A stretch of DNA of 64,000 bases from Candidatus Omnitrophota bacterium (GCA_028712255.1 JAQTQJ010000009.1:13977-77976), one strand, 5' to 3'. Shown: positions 3,912-62,193, numbered from the stretch's first letter. Program-made: numbers and translations. The notes: generated from the letters alone by a model not told the origin.

Positions 3912-4382
3912 ATGAGAAGAAGAAAAGCACAGGAAAAAGTTATTCTAGCGGATCCTAAATATAACAGTAAGATAATAGCCAAATTTATGAATATGGTTAT
4001 GGTTGATGGAAAAAAAGCTATAGCTGAAAGATTGGTTTATAGCGCTTTTGATATTGTGCTCAAAAATCTAAATGAGCAAGATATCTTAAAGGTGTTTTAT
4101 AAGGCATTGGATAATGCCCGGCCACGCCTGGAAGTAAAACCGCGCAGGGTGGGTGGAGCAACCTATCAGGTGCCTATAGAAGTAAGGCAGGAACGTGGTA
4201 CTTCTATAGCATTGCGCTGGCTTCGGGATTTTGCTCAAAATAAAAAAGGTAAACCTATGCAGCAAAAATTGGCGGAAGAAATTATCGCAGCCTATAAGGG
4301 AGAAGGATCGGCAATTAAAAAGAGAGATGATACGCATAAAATGGCTGAATCTAATAAAGCCTATGCGCATTTCCGCTGGTAA
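3912..4382 (+). CDS. rpsG: 30S ribosomal protein S7
   Basis: 156 aa S7-like sequence between rpsL and fusA. Confidence 0.95.
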   Translation: MRRRKAQEKVILADPKYNSKIIAKFMNMVMVDGKKAIAERLVYSAFDIVLKNLNEQDILKVFYKALDNARPRLEVKPRRVGGATYQVPIEVRQERGTSIALRWLRDFAQNKKGKPMQQKLAEEIIAAYKGEGSAIKKRDDTHKMAESNKAYAHFRW

Positions 4383-4385
4383 ACT

Positions 4386-6482
4386 ATGAGGAAGATACCA
4401 TTAGATAAAATTAGGAACATTGGGATAATTGCCCATATTGACGCCGGAAAAACTACAACTAGTGAACATGTTTTATTTTACACGGGTAAAAATTATAAAA
4501 TCGGCGAAGTGCATGACGGGGCAGCTACTATGGATTGGATGGTTCAGGAGCAGGAAAGAGGGATTACTATTACTGCCGCTGCTACTACCTGTAAATGGAA
4601 AGATATAACTATTAACTTAATCGATACCCCAGGCCACGTAGATTTTACTATCGAAGTAGAGAGATCATTAAAAGTTTTAGACGGGGCAGTGGTTGTTTTT
4701 TGTGGAGTCGGCGGAGTTGAACCACAATCAGAAACCGTTTGGCGTCAGGCAGACCGTTATGGAGTCCCTAGAATTGCTTTTGTTAATAAAATGGATCGAA
4801 CAGGAGCCGATTTTTTTGCGGCCGTTGATCAGATGCATGAAAGATTAGGTGCAAATGTCGCGCCGATTCAGCTTCCCGTCGGCAAAGAAACAGGTTTTAA
4901 CGGCTTGATTGATCTGGTTGAAAAAAAGTTTATTCATTACGAAGATGAATTAGGAAAAGAGTTTGTGATAAAAGATCTTTCAGAGGATATGATTGCCGAT
5001 TTTGAAAAATACCGTTTGGTTTTGGTTGAAAAAGTCGCCGAAGCTGATGATTTAATTATGGAGGTTTATTTACAAGGCAAAGTTGTTACTAATGAGCAGT
5101 TGAAGGCAGCAATTCGTAGAGCAGTAATTGTAAATAAATTTGTGCCGGTGCTTTGCGGCTCAGCTTTTAAGAATAAAGGCGTGCAGATGGTTTTAGACGC
5201 GGTAAAAGATTATCTTCCTTCGCCGATTGATGTTCCCCCGGTAAAAGGTACCAATCCTGATTCTGGGGAATTTGAAGAAATTAAAGCTGATGATAGTTCT
5301 CCTTTCACTGCTTTATGTTTTAAGGTAGCAACTGATCCTTTTGTCGGAAAAATATTTTTTGTAAGGATGTATTCCGGAATACTTACTTCAGGAACTTATA
5401 TTTATAATGCTTCAAAGAGGGAAAGAGAACGTGTTACTAAAATTGTTAAATTACACGCTAATCACCAGGAGATAACTGATAGCCTTTCTACGGGTGACAT
5501 TGCTGCTTTGGTAGGTTTAAAAGATACAAAAACCGGGGATACTCTTTGTACCGAAAAGAATCCTATTCTGGTTGAGGCTATGCGTTTTCCTGATCCGGTT
5601 ATTCAGCAGGCGATTGAACCTAAATCAAAAGATGCCCAGGAAAAATTGGGCATGGCGATGCATAAACTGGAAGATGAAGATCCATCATTTAGGGTTACCT
5701 ATAATCAGGAAACTGGCCAAACCCTTATTGCTGGAATGGGACAGCTACATTTGGAAATTATCGTCGATAGAATTTTACGAGAATTTAATGTTGAGGCTAC
5801 AGTCGGCGCTCCACAGGTTGCTTATCGTGAGACGATTAGAAAGAGTGTTTCTAGTGTTGGAAAATTTATTTCACAATCGGGTGGCCGTGGCCAATACGGG
5901 CATTGCGTTATTGAAATGAGCCCGCAAGAGACCCCGGGAACCGGTATTACATTTGAAGATAAAATTAAAAGTGGCGCAATTCCGCGTGAATTTATTCCTG
6001 CGGTAAAACAGGGAGTAATGGGTGCTGTTAAAAACGGAGTATTAGCAGGATATCCGGTTACCGACGTAAAAGTTGTTTTGATTGATGGATCATTCCATGA
6101 GGTCGATTCATCAGAATTAGCATTTAAAATGGCAGGATCCATTGCTTTTCAGGACGGAATGAAAAGAGCAAATCCTGTTCTATTGGAACCGATTATGGAT
6201 ATTGAGGTCGTCGTGCCTGAAGAATTTATGGGGCAGATTATCGGCGATCTAAGCAGTAGGCGAGCAAAAATAATTGCCCTTGGCCAGAGATTAAATTTGC
6301 GTACTATCCGAGCGAATGTTCCACTGTCGGAAGTTTTTAATTACGCAACAGTAACAAGATCCTTGACACAAGGCCGTGCTTCGTATACAATGGAACCTTC
6401 CTTCTACAGCGAAGTTCCAGCACATGTAGCGGAAAAAGTTATTCAAGGTTCAACAAATACAAAAGAAAGAAAAACTTTTTAA
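4386..6482 (+). CDS. fusA: elongation factor G
   Basis: 698 aa. G-domain [10 protein letters not shown] and DTPGHVDF motifs. str operon context. Confidence 0.95.
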
Positions 6483-6487
6483 TAACA

Positions 6488-6538
6488 CACCCCGCGCTTA
6501 TAAGGAATTGCGCGGGTGTGCCCTTAGGGGCAAGGAGG
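6488..6538 (+). promoter_or_regulatory. Recurrent structured leader motif, copy 1 (upstream of tuf)
   Basis: Hairpin 1: CACCCCGCGC, loop TTATAAGGAATT, GCGCGGGTG. Hairpin 2: TGCCCTTAGGGGCA. Followed by AAGGAGG, 9 nt before the ATG. Confidence 0.6.
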
Positions 6539-6547
6539 ATAAAAGAT

Positions 6548-7750
6548 ATGGCTAAAGAAAAATTTGTAAGAAGTAAGCCGCATGTAAATATCGGAACCAT
6601 TGGACATATTGATCATGGTAAAACCACACTTACTGCTGCCATTTGTAATGTTTTATCAAAACTTGGGCAAGCTACAGCCAGAGATTATGCAGATATTGCT
6701 AAAGGTGGTACGGTTAGAGATGAGACAAAAGTTGTTACGATTTCAGTTGCGCACGTTGAGTACGAAACTGCCGCACGTCACTATGCACATATCGATTGTC
6801 CGGGGCACGCCGATTACATTAAGAATATGATTACCGGGGCTGCTCAGATGGACGGAGCAATTTTAGTTGTTTCAGCAGCAGATGGCCCGATGCCTCAGAC
6901 TCGCGAGCACATACTTTTAGCGCGGCAGGTAAATGTACCTGCAATGGTCGTGTTCATGAACAAGGTTGATTTGGTGGATGATAAAGAACTTTTGGATCTA
7001 GTTGAAATGGAAATAAGAGATCTTTTAACCAAATATGGATACCCAGGAGATAAAACTCCGATTATCCGTGGTAGTGCCAATAAAGCTTATTCCGCAACTG
7101 ATCCTAATGGAGCAGACGCTAAGTGTATTATGGATTTGATGAAAGCAGTTGATGAGTTTATTCCTCTTCCTCCTAGGGAGTTAGATAAACCTTTGCTTAT
7201 GGCAGTTGAAGATGTTTTCAGTATTGAAGGTAGAGGTACTGTTGCTACCGGAAGAATCGAACGTGGCAAAGTTAAGGTTGGAGAGGAAGTTGAGCTTATC
7301 GGTTTGAGGGATTTGCCCAAGAAGTCGGTGGTTACCGGAATTGAAATGTTCCGTAAACTTTTAGATGAAGGGCAAGCCGGAGATAATGTTGGTTTACTTT
7401 TAAGAGGTATAGAAAAGAATGATGTTGAGCGTGGAATGGTAATTGCGGCTCCTAAATCTATTCTACCTCATACAAAATTTAAAGCCAAGGTTTACATTTT
7501 AACCAAAGAGGAAGGCGGAAGACATACTCCATTTTTTAAAGGATATCGTCCACAGTTTTATTTCCGTACTACCGATGTAACCGGAACAGCTATTCTTCCT
7601 ACCGGTGTTGAAATGGTTATGCCTGGAGATAACGTGGATTTGGAAGTTGAGTTGATTATTCCGGTTGCCATTGAAAAAGAATCGCGTTTTGCTATTCGCG
7701 AAGGTGGCCACACTGTTGGAGCAGGAGTAGTTACTGAGGTTATTGCATAA
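6548..7750 (+). CDS. tuf: elongation factor Tu
   Basis: [13 protein letters not shown] and DCPGHADY motifs. ATG 6548 is preceded by AAGGAGG. The ORF-track start at 6518 lies inside the leader motif and is probably too far upstream. Confidence 0.93.
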
Positions 7751-13963: not shown

Positions 13964-14149
13964 ATGGCAAAGAATTCACAGATCGCAAGATGGAAAAGAG
14001 CGCCTAAGTTTTCAACTCGTAAATACAACCGTTGTTCAATTTGTGGAAGAAGTGGTGGATACTTAAGAAGATTTCAACTTTGTCGTATATGTTTTAGGGA
14101 GCTGGTTTGGCAGGGGCTTATCCCCGGCGTAAAAAAGGCCAGCTGGTAA
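13964..14149 (+). CDS. rpsN: 30S ribosomal protein S14 type Z (zinc-binding)
   Basis: 61 aa with CxxC...CxxC (CSICGR...CRIC). Confidence 0.92.
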
Positions 14150-14153
14150 GTTA

Positions 14154-14205
14154 CACCCGGCGCTAAGCGGGATTGCGCCGGTGTTCCGCTTGTGCGGAAG
14201 GAGAG
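14154..14205 (+). promoter_or_regulatory. Recurrent structured leader motif, copy 2 (upstream of rpsH)
   Basis: Hairpin 1: CACCCGGCGC, loop TAAGCGGGATT, GCGCCGGTG. Hairpin 2: TTCCGCTTGTGCGGAA. Followed by GGAGAG SD. Stem sequences differ from copy 1 but remain complementary. Confidence 0.6.
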
Positions 14206-14209
14206 TTAA

Positions 14210-14605
14210 ATGTCAAGAACTGATTTAATTGCAGATGTTTTTACAATCATACGTAATGCTATATTGATTAAAAGGGATGTGGTTGATGTTCCGGCTTCTG
14301 GTAATATAAAATCAATTATGGCTATTCTTAAGAAGAATGAATATATTGATAATTTTAAATTGATTGAAGATAAGAAACAAGGCATGGTGAGAGTTTACCT
14401 GAAATATAATGCGGGAAAATCGGCGATCCGTAATATTAAGCGTGTTTCAAAGCCGGGTTTGCGGGTTTATGTAAGAGGCAAGAAGGTTCCCGCAGTATTG
14501 AGGGGCAGAGGGTTGGCGATTGTTTCTACCTCGAAAGGCGTTATCACTGATAAAGAAGCTAAAGAACTTGGTGTGGGCGGGGAAGTTATCGCCTATATCT
14601 GGTAA
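14210..14605 (+). CDS. rpsH: 30S ribosomal protein S8
   Basis: 131 aa S8-like. spc operon position. Confidence 0.93.
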   Translation: MSRTDLIADVFTIIRNAILIKRDVVDVPASGNIKSIMAILKKNEYIDNFKLIEDKKQGMVRVYLKYNAGKSAIRNIKRVSKPGLRVYVRGKKVPAVLRGRGLAIVSTSKGVITDKEAKELGVGGEVIAYIW

Positions 14606-14657
14606 CACTTTGCGTTTATAAGGAATTACGCGGGTATGCCCTTGTGGGCAAAGGAAA
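14606..14657 (+). promoter_or_regulatory. Recurrent structured leader motif, copy 3 (upstream of rplF)
   Basis: Hairpin 1: CACTTTGCGT, loop TTATAAGGAATT, ACGCGGGT, with the stem kept by G-U wobbles at RNA level. Hairpin 2: TGCCCTTGTGGGCA. Followed by AAGGAAA, then the ATG. Confidence 0.55.
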
Positions 14658-14661
14658 ATAA

Positions 14662-15213
14662 ATGTCTAGGATTGGGAAAAAACCGGTAACAATACCTAAA
14701 GATGTAAAAATAGAAGTCAAAGATGGAGTAGTTTTGGTCCAGGGGCCTAAGGGTAAGCTTGACCGTAAACTTTCTGATCGGATTAGTGTTGAGATTAAAG
14801 ATGATCAACTTTTGGTTAAAAGAGTAGCGGATACTAAGTTGGATAAATCTATGCATGGATTATACCGGGCTCTTATTGTGAATATGATTAAAGGTGTAAC
14901 TGAAGGTTATCTTAAGGAGCTAGAGATTATCGGCGTGGGATTTAAAGCTGCGGTGGCTGGGGATAAATTAAATATGGCCTTAGGATTTTCGCATCCGGTG
15001 AATTTTACAATTCCCGCAGGTATTAAAATCGAAACTCCTAAACCCACTCAATTAGTCATAAGAGGCATAGATAAGGAGTTAATAGGGGAAGTGGCAACTG
15101 AAATACGCGCAATTTATCCTCCTGAGCCTTATAAGGGTAAAGGGATTCGTTTTGTAGGAGAACAGGTAAAGAAGAAGGTGGGTAAGGCGCAGGCAACTGG
15201 CGGTGCTAAATAA
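14662..15213 (+). CDS. rplF: 50S ribosomal protein L6
   Basis: 183 aa L6-like. Conserved order. Confidence 0.93.
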   Translation: MSRIGKKPVTIPKDVKIEVKDGVVLVQGPKGKLDRKLSDRISVEIKDDQLLVKRVADTKLDKSMHGLYRALIVNMIKGVTEGYLKELEIIGVGFKAAVAGDKLNMALGFSHPVNFTIPAGIKIETPKPTQLVIRGIDKELIGEVATEIRAIYPPEPYKGKGIRFVGEQVKKKVGKAQATGGAK

Positions 15214-19670: not shown

Positions 19671-19784
19671 ATGAAGGTTAAAGCGTCGATCCGTAAGATT
19701 TGCGATAAGTGTAAAATAATAAAACGAAGAGGGGTTGTGCGTGTAATTTGCGTGACTTCTAAACATAAACAGAGGCAAGGCTAG
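19671..19784 (+). CDS. rpmJ: 50S ribosomal protein L36 (zinc type)
   Basis: 37 aa: [37 protein letters not shown]. Not in the ORF track, which lists no ORF under 60 aa. Confidence 0.9.
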
Positions 19785-19822: not shown

Positions 19823-20236
19823 ATGCCAAGAATTATCGGTGTTGATATACCTAAAGAAAAAAGAATTGAGATAGCGCTTACTTATTTATATGGAATAGGC
19901 AGGGCAACTTCAAATGTTGTGCTAAAAGAAGCAGGGATTAGCCCTGATAAGAGGGCCAAGGATTTAACTGAAGAGGAGGTATCGCGTATTACTAATATTC
20001 TTCAGAAAGGATCTTTGAGGATTGAAGGTGACTTACGTCGTGATATCTCACAGAATATTAAACGCTTGATGGATATTGGTTCTTGGAGGGGGATGCGCCA
20101 TAAAAAGGGCCTTCCTGTTCGTGGCCAGCGTACACGTACAAATTCGCGTACCAGAAAAGGCAAGAAGAGAGTAAATTTGGCGCCTATTAAGAAGGTTGAA
20201 AGCGCACCAAAAGCTGCAAAGCAGGCGGGAAAGTAA
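19823..20236 (+). CDS. rpsM: 30S ribosomal protein S13
   Basis: 137 aa S13-like. alpha operon. Confidence 0.93.
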
Positions 20237-20240
20237 TATA

Positions 20241-20290
20241 CACCCCGCGCTAATTGGTATTGCGCGGGTGTTGTCTAGGTAGACAAGGAG
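20241..20290 (+). promoter_or_regulatory. Recurrent structured leader motif, copy 4 (upstream of rpsK)
   Basis: Hairpin 1: CACCCCGCGC, loop TAATTGGTATT, GCGCGGGTG. Hairpin 2: TTGTCTAGGTAGACAA. Followed by GGAG SD. Confidence 0.6.
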
Positions 20291-20300
20291 ATAAAATAAA

Positions 20301-20690
20301 ATGGCGACAAAAGATAACGCAAAGAAGAAAAAAATTGCTCGCGGCATAACCAGCGGTATTGCCCATATTCAGGCAAGTTTCAATAATACGATTATTACTA
20401 TAACCGATAAACAAGGTAATGTTTTGGCTTGGAGTGCTCCAGGCTCAGTAGGTTATAGTGGTTCTAAGAAATCCACTCCTTTTGCCGCGCAACTTGCAGC
20501 AACTGATGCTGCCAGAAAAGCTAAAGAGGTAGGGGTTAAAGAGTTGGAAGTTTATGTGAAGGGGCCGGGTTTTGGCAGAGAGTCAGCAATTCGGGCGCTT
20601 CAGGCAGCAGGATTGGTCGTAACTTTGATTAAAGATGTTACTCCTATTCCTCATAATGGTTGCCGTCCCAAGAAGAAAAGGAGAGTTTAA
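20301..20690 (+). CDS. rpsK: 30S ribosomal protein S11
   Basis: 129 aa S11-like. alpha operon. Confidence 0.93.
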
Positions 20691-23000: not shown

Positions 23001-24177
23001 TATGAAAATAGATACTAGAGTTGCTGAGCGGCTGAAAAAAATAAATCCTTCCTCAACGCTGGCGATAACCTCTAAAGCTAAGAAACTTAAAAGCGAGGGT
23101 AAGGATATTGTTAGTTTTGCCGCCGGCGAACCTGATTTTGATACCCCTGACTTTGTAAAAGATGCGGCAATTGCGGCAATAAATTCAGGATTCACCAAGT
23201 ATACTCCTACCACAGGCATACCCGAATTAAAAAAACTTATTTGTCAGAAATTTAAAAAAGATAATTCTTTGGAATATGCTCCGGATCAGATCATCGTTTC
23301 CAATGGAGCAAAGCATAGCATTTTTAATGCGTTGATGGTGCTTCTAAACCGTGGTGATGAAGCACTTATTCCCCTGCCTTATTGGGTAAGTTACCCTGAG
23401 ATGGTAAATCTGTGCGAGGCAAATGTGCGTTTTATAAAAACAATCTCCGCAAATAATTTCAAAATTTCTGCAGCTGATCTTTCCAAGCATATTACTGCAA
23501 AAACCAAAATCCTTATTCTTAATAGCCCATCGAATCCGACCGGTTCTGTCTATGACCGGCAGGATTTGGAAGCTATCGCTAAAATCTGTGTGGCTAAAAA
23601 TATTTTTGTGATCAGCGATGAGATTTATGAGAAGATTACTTTTGACGGTTTAAAACATAATTCTATTGCCAGTCTAAATAAAGATATTTATAATTTAACC
23701 ATTACGGTCAATGGTTTATCTAAGAGCCATTCGATGACTGGTTGGCGTATCGGTTACCTGGGGGCTCCCAGTGATATTGCAAATGCTATTTCCAATCTGC
23801 AGGATCATACAACTTCTAATCCGAATTCTATTGCTCAGAAGGCAGCGGTGGCAGCAATGAGTGCTCCGGAAGATTTCACGCATAAATTATGCCTTGAGTT
23901 TGCCAAAAGGAGAGATTATTTGGCTGCAAGGCTTCGGGAAGTTAAGAGGCTAAGTTTTTCTATGCCGTTTGGAGCGTTCTATATGTTTTGTGATATATCT
24001 AAAACAGGCCTTGACTCTTTAACCTTTGCTAAGCGCTTGCTGGAGGAAGAATATGTAAGCGTAATTCCAGGATGCAGCTTTGGAATGGATGATCATATTA
24101 GGATAAGTTTTGCCACAAGTATTGAAGAATTACAAAAAGGAATGGATAGGATAGAGGGTTGGTTAAAGAAAATATAA
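23001..24177 (+). CDS. aminotransferase class I/II (aspartate aminotransferase-like)
   Basis: PLP fold-type I features (SKSHSMTGWRIGY, PLP-lysine context). ATG 23001 preferred over the ORF-track GTG at 22978. Confidence 0.8.
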
Positions 24178-24251
24178 ATAGGCTGTAAGTTGTAAGTCGA
24201 AAGTTTTAAGCTTAAAGCTTACGACTTATAGCTTAAAACTAAAGTTATTTT
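24178..24251. repeat. TAAGC-hexamer / AAGCTT-palindrome intergenic repeat, copy A
   Basis: GTAAGTTGTAAGTCGAAAGTTTTAAGCTTAAAGCTTACGACTTATAGCTTAAAAC. Contains inverted TAAGTCG/CGACTTA arms. Confidence 0.6.
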
Positions 24252-27079: not shown

Positions 27080-28177
27080 ATGGAATATAAAATAACTTTG
27101 ATTCCCGGAGATGGTATTGGCCAGGAAGTTTCTCTTGCAGCTACTCGATGTATTGACGCTACGGGAGTTAAGATTAAATGGGATACTGTGCTTGCAGGAA
27201 GTGTCGCCTTGGAGAAAATGGGAGAGCTCTTGCCACAGAGCGCATTAGATTCAATCAGGAAGAATAAAGTCGCTCTTAAGGGCCCGATTACTACCCCTAT
27301 TGGCACTGGATTTCGATCGGTAAATGTAGCTATTAGGCAGGCTTTAGATCTTTATGCATGCGTGCGTCCGGCAAAAAGTTATTTAGGAGTAAAAAGTATT
27401 TTTAAAGATATCGATTTGGTCATTATTAGGGAAAATAGCGAAGATCTTTACGCAGGTATAGAATTTGAAGAAGGTAAGCCTGAAACCAAAAATTTAATTG
27501 CTCAGATTCAAAAAGATACCAAGCGGATAATTCGTCAGGATTCCGGAATAACTATCAAGCCTATCTCTAAATTTGCCTCAGAAAGAATTGTAAAGTTTGC
27601 TTTTGAGTATGCTTTAAAGAATAAGCGTAAAAAAGTTACTTGTGTGCATAAGGCAAATATCATGAAATTTACCGACGGACTATTTTTAAAAGTTGCCCGG
27701 GAAGTCGCAGTAAATTATAAAGAAAAGATAATTTTTGAAGAAGCTATTGTAGATAATATTACCATGCAGCTAGTACAGAAGCCGCATAATTATGATGTTT
27801 TGGTGTTGCCCAATCTTTATGGAGATATAATTTCAGATCTTTGCGCAGGTTTGGTTGGTGGTTTAGGGGTTGCTCCGGGGGCCAATATCGGTTCTGATAT
27901 TGCGGTTTTCGAAGCAGTACATGGATCTGCGCCAAAATATCAGGGTCAGAATAAGGTTAACCCAACGGCTATGATTTTATCTGGGGTTTTGATGCTGCGG
28001 TATATTAATGAAGCTAAGGCGGCAGATAAATTAGAAGAGGCGGTAAAAGAGGTAATTAGTGAAGGTAAATTTGTAACATACGATTTAAAAAATGATCCGC
28101 TTGATTCAACTGCTGTAGGTACTGCGCAGATGGCTGATGCGATTATTGAGAAGGTTAAAAAATTAAATAAGGCATAA
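27080..28177 (+). CDS. beta-decarboxylating dehydrogenase (3-isopropylmalate/isocitrate/homoisocitrate dehydrogenase family)
   Basis: 365 aa IDH/IMDH family ([19 protein letters not shown]). Adjacent to leuCD. Confidence 0.8.
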
Positions 28178-28229
28178 GTTATAAGTGATAAGCCTTAAGC
28201 TTACAGCTTGTTTAGATTTTAGAAAACAC
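28178..28229. repeat. TAAGC-hexamer repeat, copy B
   Basis: ATAAGTTATAAGTGATAAGCCTTAAGCTTACAGCTTGTTTAGATTTTAG. Confidence 0.6.
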
Positions 28230-28275
28230 GGGACCGTTTCTATTTTTCTAAATTTAGAAAAATAGAAACGGTCCC
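28230..28275. repeat. 46-nt perfect palindrome (likely bidirectional terminator/hairpin), flanked by GTTT(T)AGATTT direct repeats
   Basis: GGGACCGTTTCTATTTTTCTAAATTTAGAAAAATAGAAACGGTCCC is its own reverse complement. Direct repeats sit at 28210-28220 and 28285-28296. Confidence 0.7.
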
Positions 28276-29237: not shown

Positions 29238-30527
29238 ATGTATGATCTGGCTGTTATTGGAGCAGGTTGGGCGGGTTTTAACGCTGCTCTAAGGGCAAAG
29301 GATTTTAAGTTAAAAGTTTGCCTTATTGAGTCCGATAATATCGGCGGAACCTGCTTAAACAAGGGTTGTATTCCAACCAAAACATTAATTGCCTGCGCAA
29401 AAGTATTCTCGCTTACTAAGAAATCATCAACTTTTGGAATAGAATTAGATAATCCCCGGTTTAATTTCACAAAAATCCAAGAGAGAAAAAATAAAATTAT
29501 TTATCAGCTTGCTCAAGGTATGAGAGCCAATCTTTCGGGTATTGATTTTATTCAATCAACCGCACAAATTCTTTCTCCTCATGAAATAAAAGTCGATGGC
29601 CGTTTAATTAGCGCCAAGTTTCTACTGATTTCAACCGGAAGCCATCCGCTGGAATTAGCGCAATTAAAATTCGATAAGGAAAAAATAATCTCAAGCGATG
29701 AAGCTCTGTCTTTATCAGAAATCCCGCCTTCTTTATTGATAGCCGGTGGAGGAGTAATTGGTTGTGAATTTGCCAGCCTTTTTTCTATTCTGGGTTCTAA
29801 AGTGGCTATAGCTGAGAAAATCCCTAATATATTAGCAGGACAGGATAATGATGTGGTTAGAAAGATTGAAGTTATATTTAGGAAAAAATCCATTGAAGTG
29901 ATTACTGGTGTTGATATTGCAACTTTGGCTTTACAGAATTATTCACGAGTTTTGGTTTGTGTAGGAAGGGCTCCTAATACTTCAGGCTTAGGGTTGGAAG
30001 GTTTAGGGATAAAATTGGAAAATGGTAGAATAATTGTTGATGATTACCTTAAAACTAATGTTGACAATATATATGCTGCAGGAGATTGTACTTCTAGGAT
30101 AATGCTGGCTCATTATGCTTCTTATCAGGGCAGAGCTGCGGTTGAAAATATGGTTTTGAATAATAAGCATAAAGCGGATAATTCAGTTGTGCCTTCTTGT
30201 GTATTTACTGATCCACAGATTGCTAGCGTAGGTTTGAATGAAGATAGGGCGGTGGCTACTGGTATATCGGTTAAGGCCTATAAGTTTGATTTCCGTGCTT
30301 GCGGTATGGCCTGGATTATCGATGAGGTTGAGGGATTTATCAAGGTTATTAGCAATCGGGATACTCAGGAAGTAATCGGCGCTAGCATAATTGGCCCGTT
30401 TGCTAGCGAATTAATTGCAATCTTCTCTGTAGCAATTTCTGCGCATTTGACCGTTAGTCAGATACGCGCAATAATCTTTGCTCATCCTACTCTTTCGGAA
30501 TCAATACATGAAGTTGTATGTGATTAA
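29238..30527 (+). CDS. lpdA: dihydrolipoyl dehydrogenase-like flavoprotein disulfide reductase
   Basis: FAD motif GAGWAG, redox-active CLNKGC, C-terminal dimerisation domain. 429 aa. Confidence 0.8.
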   Translation: MYDLAVIGAGWAGFNAALRAKDFKLKVCLIESDNIGGTCLNKGCIPTKTLIACAKVFSLTKKSSTFGIELDNPRFNFTKIQERKNKIIYQLAQGMRANLSGIDFIQSTAQILSPHEIKVDGRLISAKFLLISTGSHPLELAQLKFDKEKIISSDEALSLSEIPPSLLIAGGGVIGCEFASLFSILGSKVAIAEKIPNILAGQDNDVVRKIEVIFRKKSIEVITGVDIATLALQNYSRVLVCVGRAPNTSGLGLEGLGIKLENGRIIVDDYLKTNVDNIYAAGDCTSRIMLAHYASYQGRAAVENMVLNNKHKADNSVVPSCVFTDPQIASVGLNEDRAVATGISVKAYKFDFRACGMAWIIDEVEGFIKVISNRDTQEVIGASIIGPFASELIAIFSVAISAHLTVSQIRAIIFAHPTLSESIHEVVCD

Positions 30528-30530
30528 GAG

Positions 30531-30609
30531 CACCTGGCCCTTAATGGAATTGGGCCAGTGTTCGCCTGGTGGCGAAGAATTGCGCGGGTGTTTCCTTGTG
30601 GGAAGGAGG
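30531..30609 (+). promoter_or_regulatory. Recurrent structured leader motif, copy 5 (tandem 1.5 copies upstream of lipoyl-domain protein)
   Basis: Full unit: CACCTGGCCC, loop TTAATGGAATT, GGGCCAGTG, then hairpin TTCGCCTGGTGGCGAA. Partial second unit: GAATT, GCGCGGGTG, then TTCCTTGTGGGAA. Followed by GGAGG. Confidence 0.55.
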
Positions 30610-30614
30610 CTTTT

Positions 30615-30851
30615 ATGGTAAAAGTCGTTTTACCGGAATTAGGCGAAGGTATTACTAAGGCTACCGTATCATATTGGTTTTTTAAAGATGGACAGAAAGT
30701 AAGTAAGAATGATGATTTGGTTGAACTTACTACAGATAAAACTACATTTAATTTACCCAGCCCCTGTACTGGAATAATCTCTGAGATAATGTATAGTGAA
30801 GGCGATAGCGTAGAGGCAGGTCAGACACTAGCGGTAATCGATGAAGAATAA
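30615..30851 (+). CDS. free-standing biotin/lipoyl attachment domain protein
   Basis: 78 aa with E2-like lipoyl-lysine context TDKTTFNLPSPCTGII. The ORF-track start at 30558 lies inside the leader motif. Confidence 0.7.
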   Translation: MVKVVLPELGEGITKATVSYWFFKDGQKVSKNDDLVELTTDKTTFNLPSPCTGIISEIMYSEGDSVEAGQTLAVIDEE

Positions 30852-30875
30852 TCGGCAGCTGATTCCGTTAAAAAT

Positions 30876-30919
30876 AAGGGGATGGTTCTCTTAAGCAAGA
30901 GAACCATCCCCTTATTTTT
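30876..30919 (+). terminator. rho-independent terminator
   Basis: About 16-bp stem AAGGGGATGGTTCTCTT/AAGAGAACCATCCCCTT, loop AAGC, then TTATTTTT. Confidence 0.85.
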
Positions 30920-35341: not shown

Positions 35342-35394
35342 AAGATAAAGTTTATTGACAAATTAGAATGGAGTGTTAAAGTAATTAAGACAAT

Positions 35395-35600
35395 TTAGTG
35401 ATACAGGTTAAGGGAAATCCGTTTGGCCACAAGGCCATGGTTTGGCACAAAAAAGCCAAAGCCAGAAATCGGATGCGGTCCCGCCGCTGTAAAAGTTGAC
35501 GAAAGCTGCTAGCAGATAAAAGCCACTGTACTATGGAAATTAGTATGGGAAGGCGCAGCAAGTAGGATAAGACTTAAGCCAGAAGACCTGCCTGTATAAA
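35395..35600 (+). promoter_or_regulatory. cobalamin (AdoCbl) riboswitch
   Basis: GGGAAATCCG region and CCGCCGCTGTAAAAG. B12 box AGCCAGAAGACCTGCC at 35578-35593. A possible hairpin/U-rich expression platform lies further downstream at ~35643-35690. Precedes btuFCD-cobCUTS. Confidence 0.6.
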
Positions 35601-35689
35601 GAAAGTAATGCCTCGTGGAAGGGCCATAGTATTATCAGGGTGAAGCCCGATCCAGGTACCAGGAGTACCAGGTTCGGGTATTTTATTTT

Positions 35690-36517
35690 ATGAAGAAAAC
35701 TATTTTTCTAGCCGTATTTTTTGGTTTATTTTTTTACTCCACGGCTTTTGCGTATGCGCGCTATATCAGCCTTGCTCCTTCTACAACCGAGATACTTTTT
35801 GCTTTAGGGTTAGATGAAGAGATTGTGGGGGTAAGCTCGTATTGTAACTATCCGGCGCAGGCAAAAAACAAGAACAGGATTGGGGATTTTAGTAGTCCTA
35901 ATATTGAGAAGATAATTTCATTAAAGCCGGATTATATTTTTTGTACCGGCCTTGAGCAAGCGCCAGTAATTACACAGTTAAAACAGCTCAAACTTAATGT
36001 TTATGTCGCCGACCCGGTAAATGTCGAAGAGTTGTTAAAAACAATCAAAGAAATAGGAGAGATAACCAAGAGAACAAGTCAAGCAACTGTATTGATTCAA
36101 CAGATGAGAAACCAGATTCAGGCAGTAACTTCGAAGGTAGAACTTATTCCACAGGGAAAAAGGATTAAAGTTTTTCTTGAGATTTGGCATGAGCCATTAA
36201 TGACTGCGGCGGGTGGCTCTTTTGTTGACGAGTTAGTTACTCTAGCAGGAGGGATTAATATTGCTCATGATTTACCACGGCCATATTGCAGTTTTAGCGC
36301 TGAAAGTGTAATTAGCCTTAATCCTCAATGCATTATCCTGGCGTATATGGATAAGGAGGCTCCTTTAAAATTAATTAAACAGCGTTTTGGCTGGGAAAGA
36401 ATCGATGCCGTAAAGAATGGGCGGATATTCAACGATATTGATCCGGATATTTTACTTCGGCCCGGCCCAAGAATTACCAAAGGGCTTAGTCAAATTTATA
36501 AAAGATTGTACCAATAA
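35690..36517 (+). CDS. btuF: periplasmic corrinoid/siderophore-type ABC substrate-binding protein (BtuF-like)
   Basis: Signal peptide and class III PBP fold. Riboswitch-controlled, followed by FecCD permease and ATPase. Confidence 0.7.
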   Translation: MKKTIFLAVFFGLFFYSTAFAYARYISLAPSTTEILFALGLDEEIVGVSSYCNYPAQAKNKNRIGDFSSPNIEKIISLKPDYIFCTGLEQAPVITQLKQLKLNVYVADPVNVEELLKTIKEIGEITKRTSQATVLIQQMRNQIQAVTSKVELIPQGKRIKVFLEIWHEPLMTAAGGSFVDELVTLAGGINIAHDLPRPYCSFSAESVISLNPQCIILAYMDKEAPLKLIKQRFGWERIDAVKNGRIFNDIDPDILLRPGPRITKGLSQIYKRLYQ

Positions 36518-44783: not shown

Positions 44784-44945
44784 TTGACTCAGGTCGAAGT
44801 AAAAAGAGATGAATCTTTTGAATCTGCTCTGCGCCGCTTTAAGAAAAAGATTGAGCAGGAGGGGATTTTGCGGGAAGTCCGCGACCGTAAACATTACGAA
44901 AAACCCAGTGAACGCAAAAGAAAGAAAGCCAAAGCTAGAAAATAA
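44784..44945 (+). CDS. rpsU: 30S ribosomal protein S21
   Basis: 53 aa: [56 protein letters not shown] start 9 nt after GGAG. Not in the ORF track, which lists no ORF under 60 aa. Confidence 0.85.
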
Positions 44946-46165: not shown

Positions 46166-46314
46166 TCGATAAAGAGTTGCTTGATATTTTGGTTTGCCCT
46201 GCTTGTAAAGGGGATGTGGAATTAAAAGCAAGAAAAATAGTTTGTAAAAAATGCGGTAAAACTTATCCGGTGTCCGACGGAATCCCGATTATGTTAATTG
46301 ATCAGGCACAATGA
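46162..46314 (+). CDS. Trm112-like small zinc-ribbon protein
   Basis: 50 aa: [11 protein letters not shown]...[22 protein letters not shown]. Overlaps both neighbours by 4 nt (ATGA). Confidence 0.7.
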
Positions 46315-48359: not shown

Positions 48360-48480
48360 GTTTAAACTCTAAATAAGCTCTAAGCCATAAGCGATAAGCT
48401 GTAAGCTTACAGCTTAAAACTTACAACTTAAAGCTTTTGTTTTGAAGTTTTGAGTTTTAGTGTTTTAGAATTTAAGGATT
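48360..48480. repeat. TAAGC-hexamer / AAGCTT-palindrome intergenic repeat, copy C, plus GTTTTRAG octamer tandem
   Basis: AAATAAGCTCTAAGCCATAAGCGATAAGCTGTAAGCTTACAGCTTAAAACTTACAACTTAAAGCTT, including the 20-nt perfect palindrome AAGCTGTAAGCTTACAGCTT (48396-48415). Followed by GTTTTGAAGTTTTGAGTTTTAGTGTTTTAG. Confidence 0.65.
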
Positions 48481-52444: not shown

Positions 52445-52467
52445 GAAAGCGTAAAATATAAACCTAT

Positions 52468-52517
52468 CACCCAGCGCTAAGTGGAATTGCCGCTGGTGTG
52501 CCCTTGTGGGTAAGGAG
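52468..52517 (+). promoter_or_regulatory. Recurrent structured leader motif, copy 6 (upstream of gmhA)
   Basis: Hairpin 1: CACCCAGCGC, loop TAAGTGGAATT, GCCGCTGGTG. Hairpin 2: TGCCCTTGTGGGTA. Followed by AGGAG. Confidence 0.55.
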
Positions 52518-52522
52518 AAAAA

Positions 52523-53101
52523 ATGCTGGAGAGGATAAAAGATATACTCTTGGAGAGTATTCAGGTTAAAGAAGAGATTTTACGAAATCAGATTTCTTCG
52601 ATCATGCAGATTGCGGTGTTAATGATTGATTGCCTGAAGAAAGACGGTAAAGTAATTGTGTTTGGCAATGGCGGTTCAGCTAGTGACAGCCAGCATATTG
52701 CTGCTGAACTTGTCGGCCGTTTTAAGAAGGATCGCTCAGCCTTAGCCGGCATTGCTTTGACTACTAATACCTCTATACTTACTTCTTTGGCTAATGATTA
52801 TGGGTATGATGTAGTTTTTTCCCGCCAGGTTGAAGCTTTGGGAAAGAAAAATGATGTAGTTTTAGGAATATCAACTAGCGGAAGAGCAAAAAATGTAGCT
52901 TTAGGAATTAAGCAAGCCAAGAAGATGGGAATTAAAACCGTGGCTCTAAGCGGAGGGGATGGAGGGGATATTGTAAAATTAGCAGATGTATCTTTGGTGG
53001 TTCCCTCTAAAGTAACCGCCAGGATTCAGGAAGCACACATTACCATCGCCCATATAATATGCGAAATGATCGAGCAGGAACTTTGCCAGGAACAAAAATA
53101 A
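52523..53101 (+). CDS. gmhA: SIS-domain phosphoheptose isomerase
   Basis: 192 aa SIS domain (GNGGSASDSQH). Confidence 0.85.
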   Translation: MLERIKDILLESIQVKEEILRNQISSIMQIAVLMIDCLKKDGKVIVFGNGGSASDSQHIAAELVGRFKKDRSALAGIALTTNTSILTSLANDYGYDVVFSRQVEALGKKNDVVLGISTSGRAKNVALGIKQAKKMGIKTVALSGGDGGDIVKLADVSLVVPSKVTARIQEAHITIAHIICEMIEQELCQEQK

Positions 53102-61831: not shown

Positions 61832-62119
61832 ATGTCAATGCATCCGTCATTAACTATTTCGGAAAAGGACAAGAAGGTCCGCTCGGTATTGAAACGTTCT
61901 GAGCGCATAAAACTGATGCAAGAAAAAAGTAAATGGCAGCAAGGTGATTCGGTTTATGGCCTTCCGAAGCTCAAATCTTTAAGGATTAAGATTAAAAAGG
62001 AAAAAGTTGAAAAAGCTGAAAGCGCAACTGCGCAGGCTGCTACACCAGCAGCTGGTGCTACTAAAGAAGCTGCCAAAGCTGCTCCTAAAGCTGCCGCCAA
62101 GGCTCAAGAGAAGAAATAA
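61832..62119 (+). CDS. small basic protein Sbp-like (A/K-rich histone-H1-like tail)
   Basis: N-terminus MHPSLTIS...VRSVLKRSER resembles the Sbp family I recall from PVC-group bacteria. C-terminal AKAAPKAAAKA tail. Confidence 0.45.
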   Translation: MSMHPSLTISEKDKKVRSVLKRSERIKLMQEKSKWQQGDSVYGLPKLKSLRIKIKKEKVEKAESATAQAATPAAGATKEAAKAAPKAAAKAQEKK

Positions 62120-62193
62120 AATTTGATTATAAGCTTTAAGCTGTAAGTTTTAAGCTATAAGCTTAAGGGTTATCGCTTGCAGCTTACTTAAAT
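62120..62193. repeat. TAAGC-hexamer intergenic repeat, copy D
   Basis: ATAAGCTTTAAGCTGTAAGTTTTAAGCTATAAGCTTAAGGGTTATCGCTTGCAGCTTACTTA. Confidence 0.6.

Follow-up and report, generated by a model that had tools for sequence, protein, structure and literature searches.

The locus raises the question of why one and the same pair of small hairpins stands directly before the ribosome-binding sites of genes as different as those for elongation factor Tu, ribosomal proteins and a SIS-domain protein. We addressed this question in a stretch of 64,000 nucleotides from a Candidatus Omnitrophota bacterium, referred to as the window, in which a first-pass annotation had described six copies of a two-hairpin leader motif. 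All six copies are present where it had placed them, and the architecture is the one that it had outlined, with a GC-rich stem, a loop of 11–12 nt, a second hairpin and then the Shine-Dalgarno sequence (SD). Hairpin 1 consists of a 10-bp GC-rich stem with the foot ACAC...GTGT and one bulged C on its 5′ side, and its 11–12-nt loop takes the form T(T)A..GG(A/T)ATT. Hairpin 2 follows directly, is built of 4–6 bp of variable sequence and is succeeded by the SD. The limits of the unit are defined by tandem copies in the loci L158, L137 and L117; it comprises an (R)RCACC..GTGT hairpin plus a hairpin 2 ending in A or AA, about 46–48 nt in all. The two ends (ACACC.. and ..GGGCA/AA) are not inverted repeats, and the unit contains neither a start codon nor an open reading frame (ORF). 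Altogether, six complete copies and a single half copy lie in the window, each with an SD at its end that lies 5–10 nt before the start codon:

6487–6531, plus strand: copy 1, with the fusA stop codon (6480–6482) on its 5′ side and tuf on its 3′ side; hairpin 1 at 6487–6519, hairpin 2 at 6520–6531, SD AAGGAGG at 6532–6538, ATG at 6548.
14153–14199, plus strand: copy 2, with the rpsN stop codon (14147–14149) on its 5′ side and rpsH on its 3′ side; hairpin 1 at 14153–14184 with the stem variant CCCGGCGC, hairpin 2 at 14185–14198, GGAG at 14200–14203, ATG at 14210.
14605–14649, plus strand: copy 3, 5′ of rplF and starting within the rpsH stop codon (TAA, 14603–14605); hairpin 1 at 14605–14637, hairpin 2 at 14638–14649, SD-like AAAGGAAAA at 14650–14658, ATG at 14662.
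20240–20286, plus strand: copy 4, with the rpsM stop codon (20234–20236) on its 5′ side and rpsK on its 3′ side; hairpin 1 at 20240–20271, hairpin 2 of the type TGTCTAGGTAGACA at 20272–20285, GGAG at 20287–20290, ATG at 20301.
30530–30576, plus strand: copy 5a, a whole unit directly 3′ of the stop codon (30525–30527) of a dihydrolipoyl-dehydrogenase-like gene; hairpin 1 at 30530–30561 with the TGGCCC stem variant, hairpin 2 at 30562–30575.
30577–30604, plus strand: copy 5b, an outer unit reduced to its 3′ half, the left arm being absent; loop end GAATT and right arm GCGCGGGTGT at 30577–30591, hairpin 2 at 30592–30604, then SD GGAGG at 30605–30609 and the ATG of the lipoyl gene at 30615.
52467–52511, plus strand: copy 6, 22 nt past the phosphofructokinase stop codon and adjoining the SD of a SIS-domain (gmhA-like) gene; hairpin 1 at 52467–52499, hairpin 2 at 52500–52511, SD AAGGAG at 52512–52517, ATG at 52523.

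According to Pfam, the downstream genes encode EF-Tu, S8, L6, S11, a 78-residue biotin/lipoyl domain protein and a SIS-domain protein. The copies all differ from one another. In copy 3, hairpin 1 contains one C.A mismatch and is held together by three G-U pairs, as had been noticed before, and in copy 6 the variable pair is A-T and the right arm carries one extra C. The hairpin-2 type of copy 4 recurs in the orthologous copies of L128 and L132, and copy 5a carries the hairpin-2 type typical of loop-inserted copies. The description of the lipoyl copy as a tandem needs correction: a complete unit is present, but its partner is only a 3′ half that lacks the left arm, an arrangement found again in the relatives L162 and L124. 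A covariance model built from the six window copies and scored at every window position (R1) retrieved only these six at E ≤ 1e-14, the next match having E = 0.16, and gave a weak match at 30581–30609, the partial seventh copy. No copy was found by R1 on the minus strand of the window, and copies before rpsC, rplP and rpsM, which exist in other genomes, are absent from it. Because every gene of the window lies on the plus strand, the window by itself cannot test orientation.

We searched other genomes with the same model, a step that the first-pass annotation had recommended, and recovered more than 80 further copies, almost exclusively in Candidatus Omnitrophota metagenome-assembled genomes (MAGs) and related metagenome contigs. 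One route to these loci was a 16-nt pattern taken from the loop and right arm, GGNATTGCGCSGGTGT, which matched at least 120 loci in GTDB species genomes. Among the 120 loci listed, R1 was significant in 24, of which 21 are titled Candidatus Omnitrophota or Omnitrophica and the other three belong to two MAGs titled Planctomycetales and Deltaproteobacteria; the remaining 96, in other genomes that are mostly GC-rich, were rejected by the covariance model as chance matches. The second route was a metagenome scan with the S8 protein of the window, which yielded 80 S10/spc/alpha operon loci of relatives (S8 identity 92–48%), and within these R1 found 50 copies, every one on the gene strand. Since a model made from window copies alone finds copies in other genomes at E-values of 1e-8 to 1e-16, chance is excluded as an origin of the motif. 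The genes preceded by the element encode EF-Tu, S3, L16, L14, S8, L6, S13 and S11, along with many non-ribosomal proteins. A second model, R2, was made from hairpin 1 alone (56 sequences), so that neither hairpin 2 nor the SD nor the start codon enters into its scores; it found no copy in relatives with an S8 identity of 55% or less, whereas lineages at 75% or more do carry the repeat. A whole-hairpin pattern had 13 matches in viral contigs, none of them a true copy. With Rfam 15, the whole window gave only a cobalamin riboswitch and a tRNA-Gly at the gathering threshold, and at E ≤ 10 copies 1–3 gave nothing but noise matches, so that no family was matched at either the gathering or the permissive threshold. 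Full-text literature searches likewise found nothing relevant described in Omnitrophota or Omnitrophica. The motif is thus real, and it represents an undescribed, clade-wide family of two-hairpin repeats in Omnitrophota bacteria.

The position of the copies relative to genes was assessed with R2 in 958 kb of sequence on both strands (E ≤ 1e-3). Of the 78 matches, 57 are followed by an SD and, 21–30 nt past hairpin 1 (42 nt in one case), by an ORF start, the ORF being 50 or more amino acids long; 20 others form tandem or nested arrays that terminate in an SD and a start codon, and one copy is reversed. Hence 77 of 78 matches to the hairpin-1-only model stand in the sense orientation 5′ of an SD and a start codon, the placement that had been proposed from the window. 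In loci taken from random genome positions, the copies occupy either strand of the locus, always that of the downstream gene. In long intergenic regions, such as the one before gmhA in the window and one in L126, the unit adjoins the SD, away from the upstream stop codon, and the copies in L009 and L052 are preceded by a promoter-like TATAAT box instead of a stop codon. The sole reversed copy (L024, 2750–2797) lies between tRNA-Thr and rpmG, which is encoded on the opposite strand, and its other end adjoins the rpmG SD. Where several copies occur together they are direct tandems or nested; inverted pairs were never seen. Random placement, missing covariation and an Rfam match, the three outcomes that the first-pass annotation had held to speak against its proposal, were thus all absent from our data.

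Comparison of 74 aligned copies revealed strong constraint on pairing. Helix 1 is paired to 98.5%, and 12 of 14 pairs (8 of 10 by one count) show changes on both sides; these figures come from alignments that had been fitted to the model, and the pairs counted do not represent independent events. Variation is greatest at one pair, which is C-G in 31 copies, G-C in 30 and A-U in five. None of 500 shuffles matched the observed percentage of pairing, the pairs and cells changed on both sides or the covariation score, and slid registers collapsed. With the outermost pair left out, G.T and T.G mismatches outnumber A.C and C.A mismatches by 15 to 4, which identifies the sense strand as the folding strand. 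The constraint extends over long times. Units at the tuf site are 87–91% identical, whereas the fourfold-degenerate sites of tuf are only 35–56% identical. The same nested composite precedes rpsH in L154 and L155 (fourfold identity 0.71); by our own count, all of its about 58 stem positions are identical and about 7 of about 32 loop and linker positions differ. In the sisters L139 and L147 (fourfold identity 0.72), hairpin 1 is identical and hairpin 2 differs at one pair that has changed in a compensatory way (GTCC..GGAC versus GCCC..GGGC). Similarity is also higher among same-site copies of different genomes (0.745) than among copies from different sites of a single genome (0.671), and in same-site pairs, taken as orthologous, double changes kept the pair in 46 of 46 cases in helix 1 and in 67 of 69 in helix 2. 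These data show that the stems are under strand-specific purifying selection and that the loops drift over long times. The earlier proposal that selection acts on RNA structure rather than on DNA sequence is thus supported in part: pairing of the sense strand is selected, but the sequence of hairpin 1 is highly conserved across genomes as well as its pairing. A purely structural role leaves this sequence conservation unexplained. Some well-folded copies have nevertheless lost conserved loop positions, for example TTATTTGAATT.

A different aspect of the family emerged from orthologous junctions with and without a unit. At the fusA-tuf junction, the empty form of L121 reads TTTTTAATAAAAC^AGGAGGATAAAAGAA-ATG and the filled form of the window reads TTTTTAATAAC[ACACC...GGGGCA]AGGAGGATAAAAGAT-ATG, with nearly identical flanks. 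In a rough tuf tree, filled and empty states are interleaved, and even the close pair L154 (filled) and L155 (empty) differs. The rpsN-rpsH junction is empty (10–17 nt) in many relatives, contains a unit in the window, L126 and L136, a tandem in L137 and nested copies in L146 and L153–155; other lineages carry unrelated hairpin repeat families at this same junction. Between rpsH and rplF, the states range from an empty 5 nt up to composites of two or more units, and degenerate remnants occur as well. The rplV-rpsC junction shows that a unit can also enter an ORF. The L22 ORF contains the rpsC SD in the window and in most relatives (..K P G E *), whereas in L121, L139, L143 and L147 a unit stands directly 5′ of GGAG, and L22 continues into the unit until the loop of hairpin 1 supplies its stop codon TAA (..K P S T P R *). 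The unit has thus entered the 3′-terminal part of the upstream ORF and taken the place of its SD-bearing tail. One copy, in L147, is fused to the SD. The SD variant AAAGGAAAA at rplF is found with and without a unit. As SD and spacer are identical in both states, they are resident to the gene and not part of the unit.

Nested copies were analyzed in simple and nested orthologous pairs (L136 versus L153–155, window tuf versus L143, and L137 versus L146). The inner unit sits between GG and AATT of the outer hairpin-1 loop. Neither target duplications nor terminal inverted repeats were seen when empty and filled junctions were compared, the ambiguity being at most 1–2 nt. At genes, the unit is inserted 5′ of (A)GGAG, and in loops it is inserted 3′ of GG; a single target sequence or target-site duplication cannot be defined, as the registers at SD sites and in loops disagree. 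Because the relatives compared are old, their fourfold-degenerate sites having diverged by 29–65%, presence and absence reflect gain or loss over long times and not current mobility. Nor is there any sign of a recent burst, since the window copies are all different. Presence and absence at the same site, tandem and nested copies, insertion into the end of an ORF and one reversed copy all speak for the mobile repeat, the option that the first-pass annotation had listed last and that the strongest new evidence favours. They also agree with its statement that the element is not an autoregulatory leader of ribosomal-protein genes, as many unrelated genes are preceded by it and each site is empty in many relatives.

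Taken together, we consider it probable that the family is an insertion-type palindromic element, adjacent to the SD and strand-specific, which resembles REP elements and MIRUs in its behaviour and is kept folded by selection. Its units would have arrived via site- and strand-specific DNA insertion, with no target duplication or terminal inverted repeats. The insertion most plausibly acts on single-stranded DNA hairpins, by an HUH/Y1-type reaction as for REP/RAYT and IS200/IS605. Conservation of the sequence and bulge of hairpin 1 would follow from its recognition as single-stranded DNA. A unit landing just 5′ of the SD would fold locally, so that the SD stays single-stranded and the spacing between SD and start codon remains intact; with an open SD and preserved spacing, insertion may be tolerated even in tuf and ribosomal-protein operons. 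Being located inside operons, the units are co-transcribed, and a resident unit would appear in mRNA as a leader or as an intercistronic hairpin pair. The GC-rich arms may be kept paired because unpaired arms would disturb the neighbouring ribosome-binding site. Alternatively, the hairpins may bring a benefit, either by insulating the ribosome-binding site or by protecting an mRNA end after cleavage. For the putative mobilising enzyme, a crude HUH...Y regular expression had no match among 2278 ORFs from about 0.95 Mb of fragments of many genomes, and neither a RAYT gene nor tnpA or tnpB was found. HUH/Y1 transposition appears to be the best precedent, but the geometry matches incompletely. Furthermore, the 77:1 orientation bias and the adjacency to the SD could stem from selection for an RNA function instead, and purifying selection in situ would be expected of a functional RNA.

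This brings up the main rival, which we regard as unlikely, namely that the motif is a cis-acting RNA signal. In this reading, hairpin 1 would be bound or cut by a sequence-specific RNA-binding protein or endoribonuclease that punctuates polycistronic mRNAs or co-regulates the translation of more than 100 genes, hairpin 2 would shield the newly formed 5′ end and display the SD, and the spread at the DNA level would be secondary, due to recruitment by recombination or to an old mobile origin. Such a signal would account for the strict sense orientation and the fixed distance to the start codon, for stem, bulge and loop positions of hairpin 1 that are conserved across genomes with saturated synonymous sites, and for the excess of G.U over A.C. 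In addition, a cut between the hairpins would leave a 3′ hairpin on the upstream product and a 5′ hairpin on the downstream product, as at the RNase III sites of phage T7, though the stem is shorter than a classical RNase III substrate needs. Purifying selection on the stems in situ and the drifting loops fit the RNA signal and the folded insertion element equally well, and the balance is tipped by features that suit the signal less. The same essential junctions are empty in close relatives, the occupied junctions differ by genome and no gene set is marked consistently, so that sites are dispensable and shuffled. Nested, tandem, half and degenerate copies, as well as the copy fused to the SD in L147, would be odd for a regulatory site, and the conserved loop positions are missing in some well-folded copies.

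The two readings might also be joined. A mobile DNA that homes to ribosome-binding sites may in addition have been co-opted throughout the clade as a leader and intercistronic module that punctuates operon mRNAs, a combination that we judge to be unlikely. In this case, the element would recognise the purine-rich SD context together with the loop of its own hairpin 1, whose TAAGGA is SD-like, and would insert in one orientation. A dedicated RNA-binding protein or nuclease would act on hairpin 1, and the co-option would span a phylum-level clade.

A purely selfish element of the REP or PATE kind, free of any RNA-level role or constraint and positioned by its transposition mechanism alone, is a distinctly improbable explanation. 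The similarity between genomes would in this case reflect continual turnover of young copies derived from conserved masters. Patchy presence and absence, nested or tandem stacking and the lack of both target duplication and terminal inverted repeats would be expected of such an element, as would a conserved hairpin with a bulged base, like those of HUH single-strand transposase substrates; the unrelated hairpin repeat families that other lineages carry in the same junctions point the same way. Its neutral resident copies are contradicted by the two pairs of relatives described above: the composite of L154 and L155 is clearly orthologous and has no stem substitutions at 29% neutral divergence with diverged loops, and a compensatory exchange in hairpin 2 separates L139 from L147. 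Young turnover is further argued against by the grouping of copies by site and not by genome and by the window copies being all different. Finally, a signal in double-stranded DNA, be it an operator palindrome to which a transcription factor or nucleoid protein binds, or a module acting as promoter or terminator, would suit an intergenic palindrome with conserved outer half-sites ACAC/GTGT but is hardly credible, because the inner half-sites change compensatorily so that complementarity is kept rather than sequence, the asymmetry of G.T and A.C implies one folding strand, the majority of copies lie between cistrons inside operons, and U-tracts, promoter-like and terminator-like sites are all absent at the copies.

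Several narrower readings were considered and dropped. An intrinsic terminator, already denied by the first-pass annotation, does not fit a hairpin 2 that is followed by AAGGAG instead of a U-tract; between positions 4000 and 23000, none of the copies overlaps a terminator-like site. CsrA-type GGA sites do not apply, many loops having GGT or TGA instead, and pairing of the loop with the 16S 3′ end, or a standby SD, would have AAGG or AGGA to rely on in only about half of the loops. An integron attC-like site is at odds with the order of core sites and with the location of the element within essential operons. As to a pseudoknot between the hairpin-1 loop and hairpin 2, the association of AAGG with CCTT reflects linkage within a subfamily and is absent in the TGTCT..AGACA class. 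For a promoter inside the unit, the spacing is wrong, and no promoter-like site was found there.

Within the range of known systems, the family belongs among the small interspersed palindromic elements; its strict placement is unusual. In behaviour, REP elements and MIRUs come closest, and in layout the REP2 repeats of Neisseria and the IR repeats of Borrelia. With REP, BIME and REPIN sequences, the family shares short, GC-rich, imperfect palindromes that are non-coding, occur in many copies in transcribed intergenic DNA, lack terminal inverted repeats and target duplications and keep their structure by compensatory changes. It is known that REPs lying next to a stop codon influence the gene before them. 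In contrast to the present units with their foot (R)RCAC/GTGT, REPs carry a conserved GTAG-type tetranucleotide at their 5′ foot; they form inverted pairs (BIME, REPIN), whereas the present copies are single, directly stacked or nested; and they lie mostly 3′ of genes in either orientation, whereas the present units lie 5′ of the SD in the sense orientation. Moreover, the present unit contains a second, unrelated hairpin. Classical MITEs have terminal inverted repeats and a target-site duplication, of which the present units have neither. The miniature elements of the IS200/IS605 family (PATEs) share with our units the lack of both features, seamless empty sites, hairpins near the ends and strictly oriented insertion beside a short specific sequence. 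A bulged base also occurs in the hairpin of IS608, as in the present hairpin 1. However, the left and right hairpins of IS200/IS605 elements are similar, whereas hairpins 1 and 2 are dissimilar. The target geometry does not seem to be shared either: these elements have their conserved target on the 5′ side along the folding strand, whereas the (A)GGAG flank lies 3′ on the strand with the G.T excess; and they use a fixed tetra- or pentanucleotide target, whereas the present units sit at (A)GGAG or after GG in loops.

Phage T7 has repeated RNase III hairpins between its genes. As a functional analogy only, these resemble our units as similar hairpins between cistrons just 5′ of the next ribosome-binding site; the T7 sites comprise about 20 bp with an internal bubble and their cleavage is demonstrated, whereas the present stem has 10 bp and would be only a putative processing site. 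MIRUs are regarded as mobile repeats whose insertion at start codons leaves expression unharmed (PMC12548453). Like the present family, they are small and presumed mobile, occur at gene starts within operons in one orientation with downstream expression spared (PMC12548453), and form tandem copies. They differ in that a MIRU provides a short ORF which overlaps the neighbouring stop and start codons and is translationally coupled to the gene (–4 spacing), whereas the present units are hairpins without an ORF, 5′ of an intact SD; rplV-rpsC is the one junction at which an upstream ORF extends into a unit. The Neisseria REP2 and Borrelia IR repeats combine two stem-loops with a ribosome-binding site upstream of ORFs (PMC3184786). 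REP2 spans 120–150 bp with its own promoter, ribosome-binding site and ATG, and its approximately 25 copies are tied to a co-regulated gene set; the present unit has 46–48 nt and no promoter, its SD and start codon are resident in the gene, and its copies are mostly intercistronic.

The searched literature and Rfam contained no family of palindromes at the edge of the SD. Indeed, we know of no palindrome family that lies exactly at the 5′ edge of the SD, in one orientation, within operons that are among the best conserved and most strongly expressed, those of tuf and S10/spc/alpha. The pattern suggests either an unrecognised choice of insertion site or an unrecognised leader function. It also shows that the intercistronic junctions of ribosomal-protein genes, usually deemed frozen, host several repeat families in this uncultured phylum. 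In practical terms, the family can be used as a lineage marker and is a source of annotation errors concerning start codons and ORF ends such as that of L22. In addition, it illustrates how, in nature, a compact pair of hairpins can be placed before a ribosome-binding site without loss of expression. Should homing to ribosome-binding sites and clade-wide co-option both prove true, the family would reveal a new principle of target choice for a transposable element and a new layer in the organisation of operon mRNAs.

Atypical copies of the two-hairpin element were found among the relatives. At L024, one of the loci compared with the window, positions 2750-2797 hold the sole reversed copy, which lies between tRNA-Thr and the opposite-strand rpmG, with reverse-complemented hairpin 1 adjoining the rpmG Shine-Dalgarno (SD) sequence (AAGGATAAATATG). 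At the rpsN-rpsH junction of L147, just upstream of 10001, the left arm and the start of the loop (GCGCCCCGCGCTTATAAGGAGAATAAATG) are joined directly to the SD. This fusion suggests that the stretch separating the SD-like AAGGA of the loop from the real SD has been deleted.

Several other, unrelated families of hairpin repeats occur at the rpsN-rpsH and rpsH-rplF junctions of different Omnitrophota lineages (loci L121-L185). One of these families has a common 3' end, ..TTAAAATGGGGGCTCATTAATG, comprising SD, spacer and ATG; the window lacks this family.

Besides repeats, the window carries further candidate signals and small genes. A near-consensus sigma-70-like promoter candidate (6363-6391, TTGACA-17-TACAAT), identified solely by its 11/12 consensus match, lies within the fusA 3' end and precedes the element copy at tuf by ~95 nt, and a cobalamin riboswitch (35388-35609, 86 bits) is located upstream of the gene cluster beginning at 35690. 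Three small genes, shorter than the 60-aa ORF filter, occupy places that appear as intergenic gaps:

19671-19784, rpmJ (L36)
44784-44945, rpsU (S21)
46166-46310, four-cysteine zinc-ribbon-like ORF

A second repeat family in the window forms arrays with a unit of ~7 nt, (A/G)TAAGC(T/C), which are palindromic in part (AAGCTGTAAGCTTACAGCTT). Four operons end with such an array immediately 3' of the stop codon:

24170-24234, (A/G)TAAGC(T/C) array
28159-28223, (A/G)TAAGC(T/C) array
48365-48450, (A/G)TAAGC(T/C) array
62114-62178, (A/G)TAAGC(T/C) array

The window also contains two further palindromes. The one at 30870-30919, 3' of the lipoyl-domain gene, consists of an A-run, a 16-bp stem and a T-run, an arrangement that resembles a bidirectional terminator. 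The other (28230-28275) is a perfect 19-bp palindrome, GGGACCGTTTCTATTTTTC..GAAAAATAGAAACGGTCCC. In a relative (L131), the rpsN-rpsH junction is taken up by a long palindrome related to the one at 28230-28275, which therefore probably belongs to a third interspersed family.
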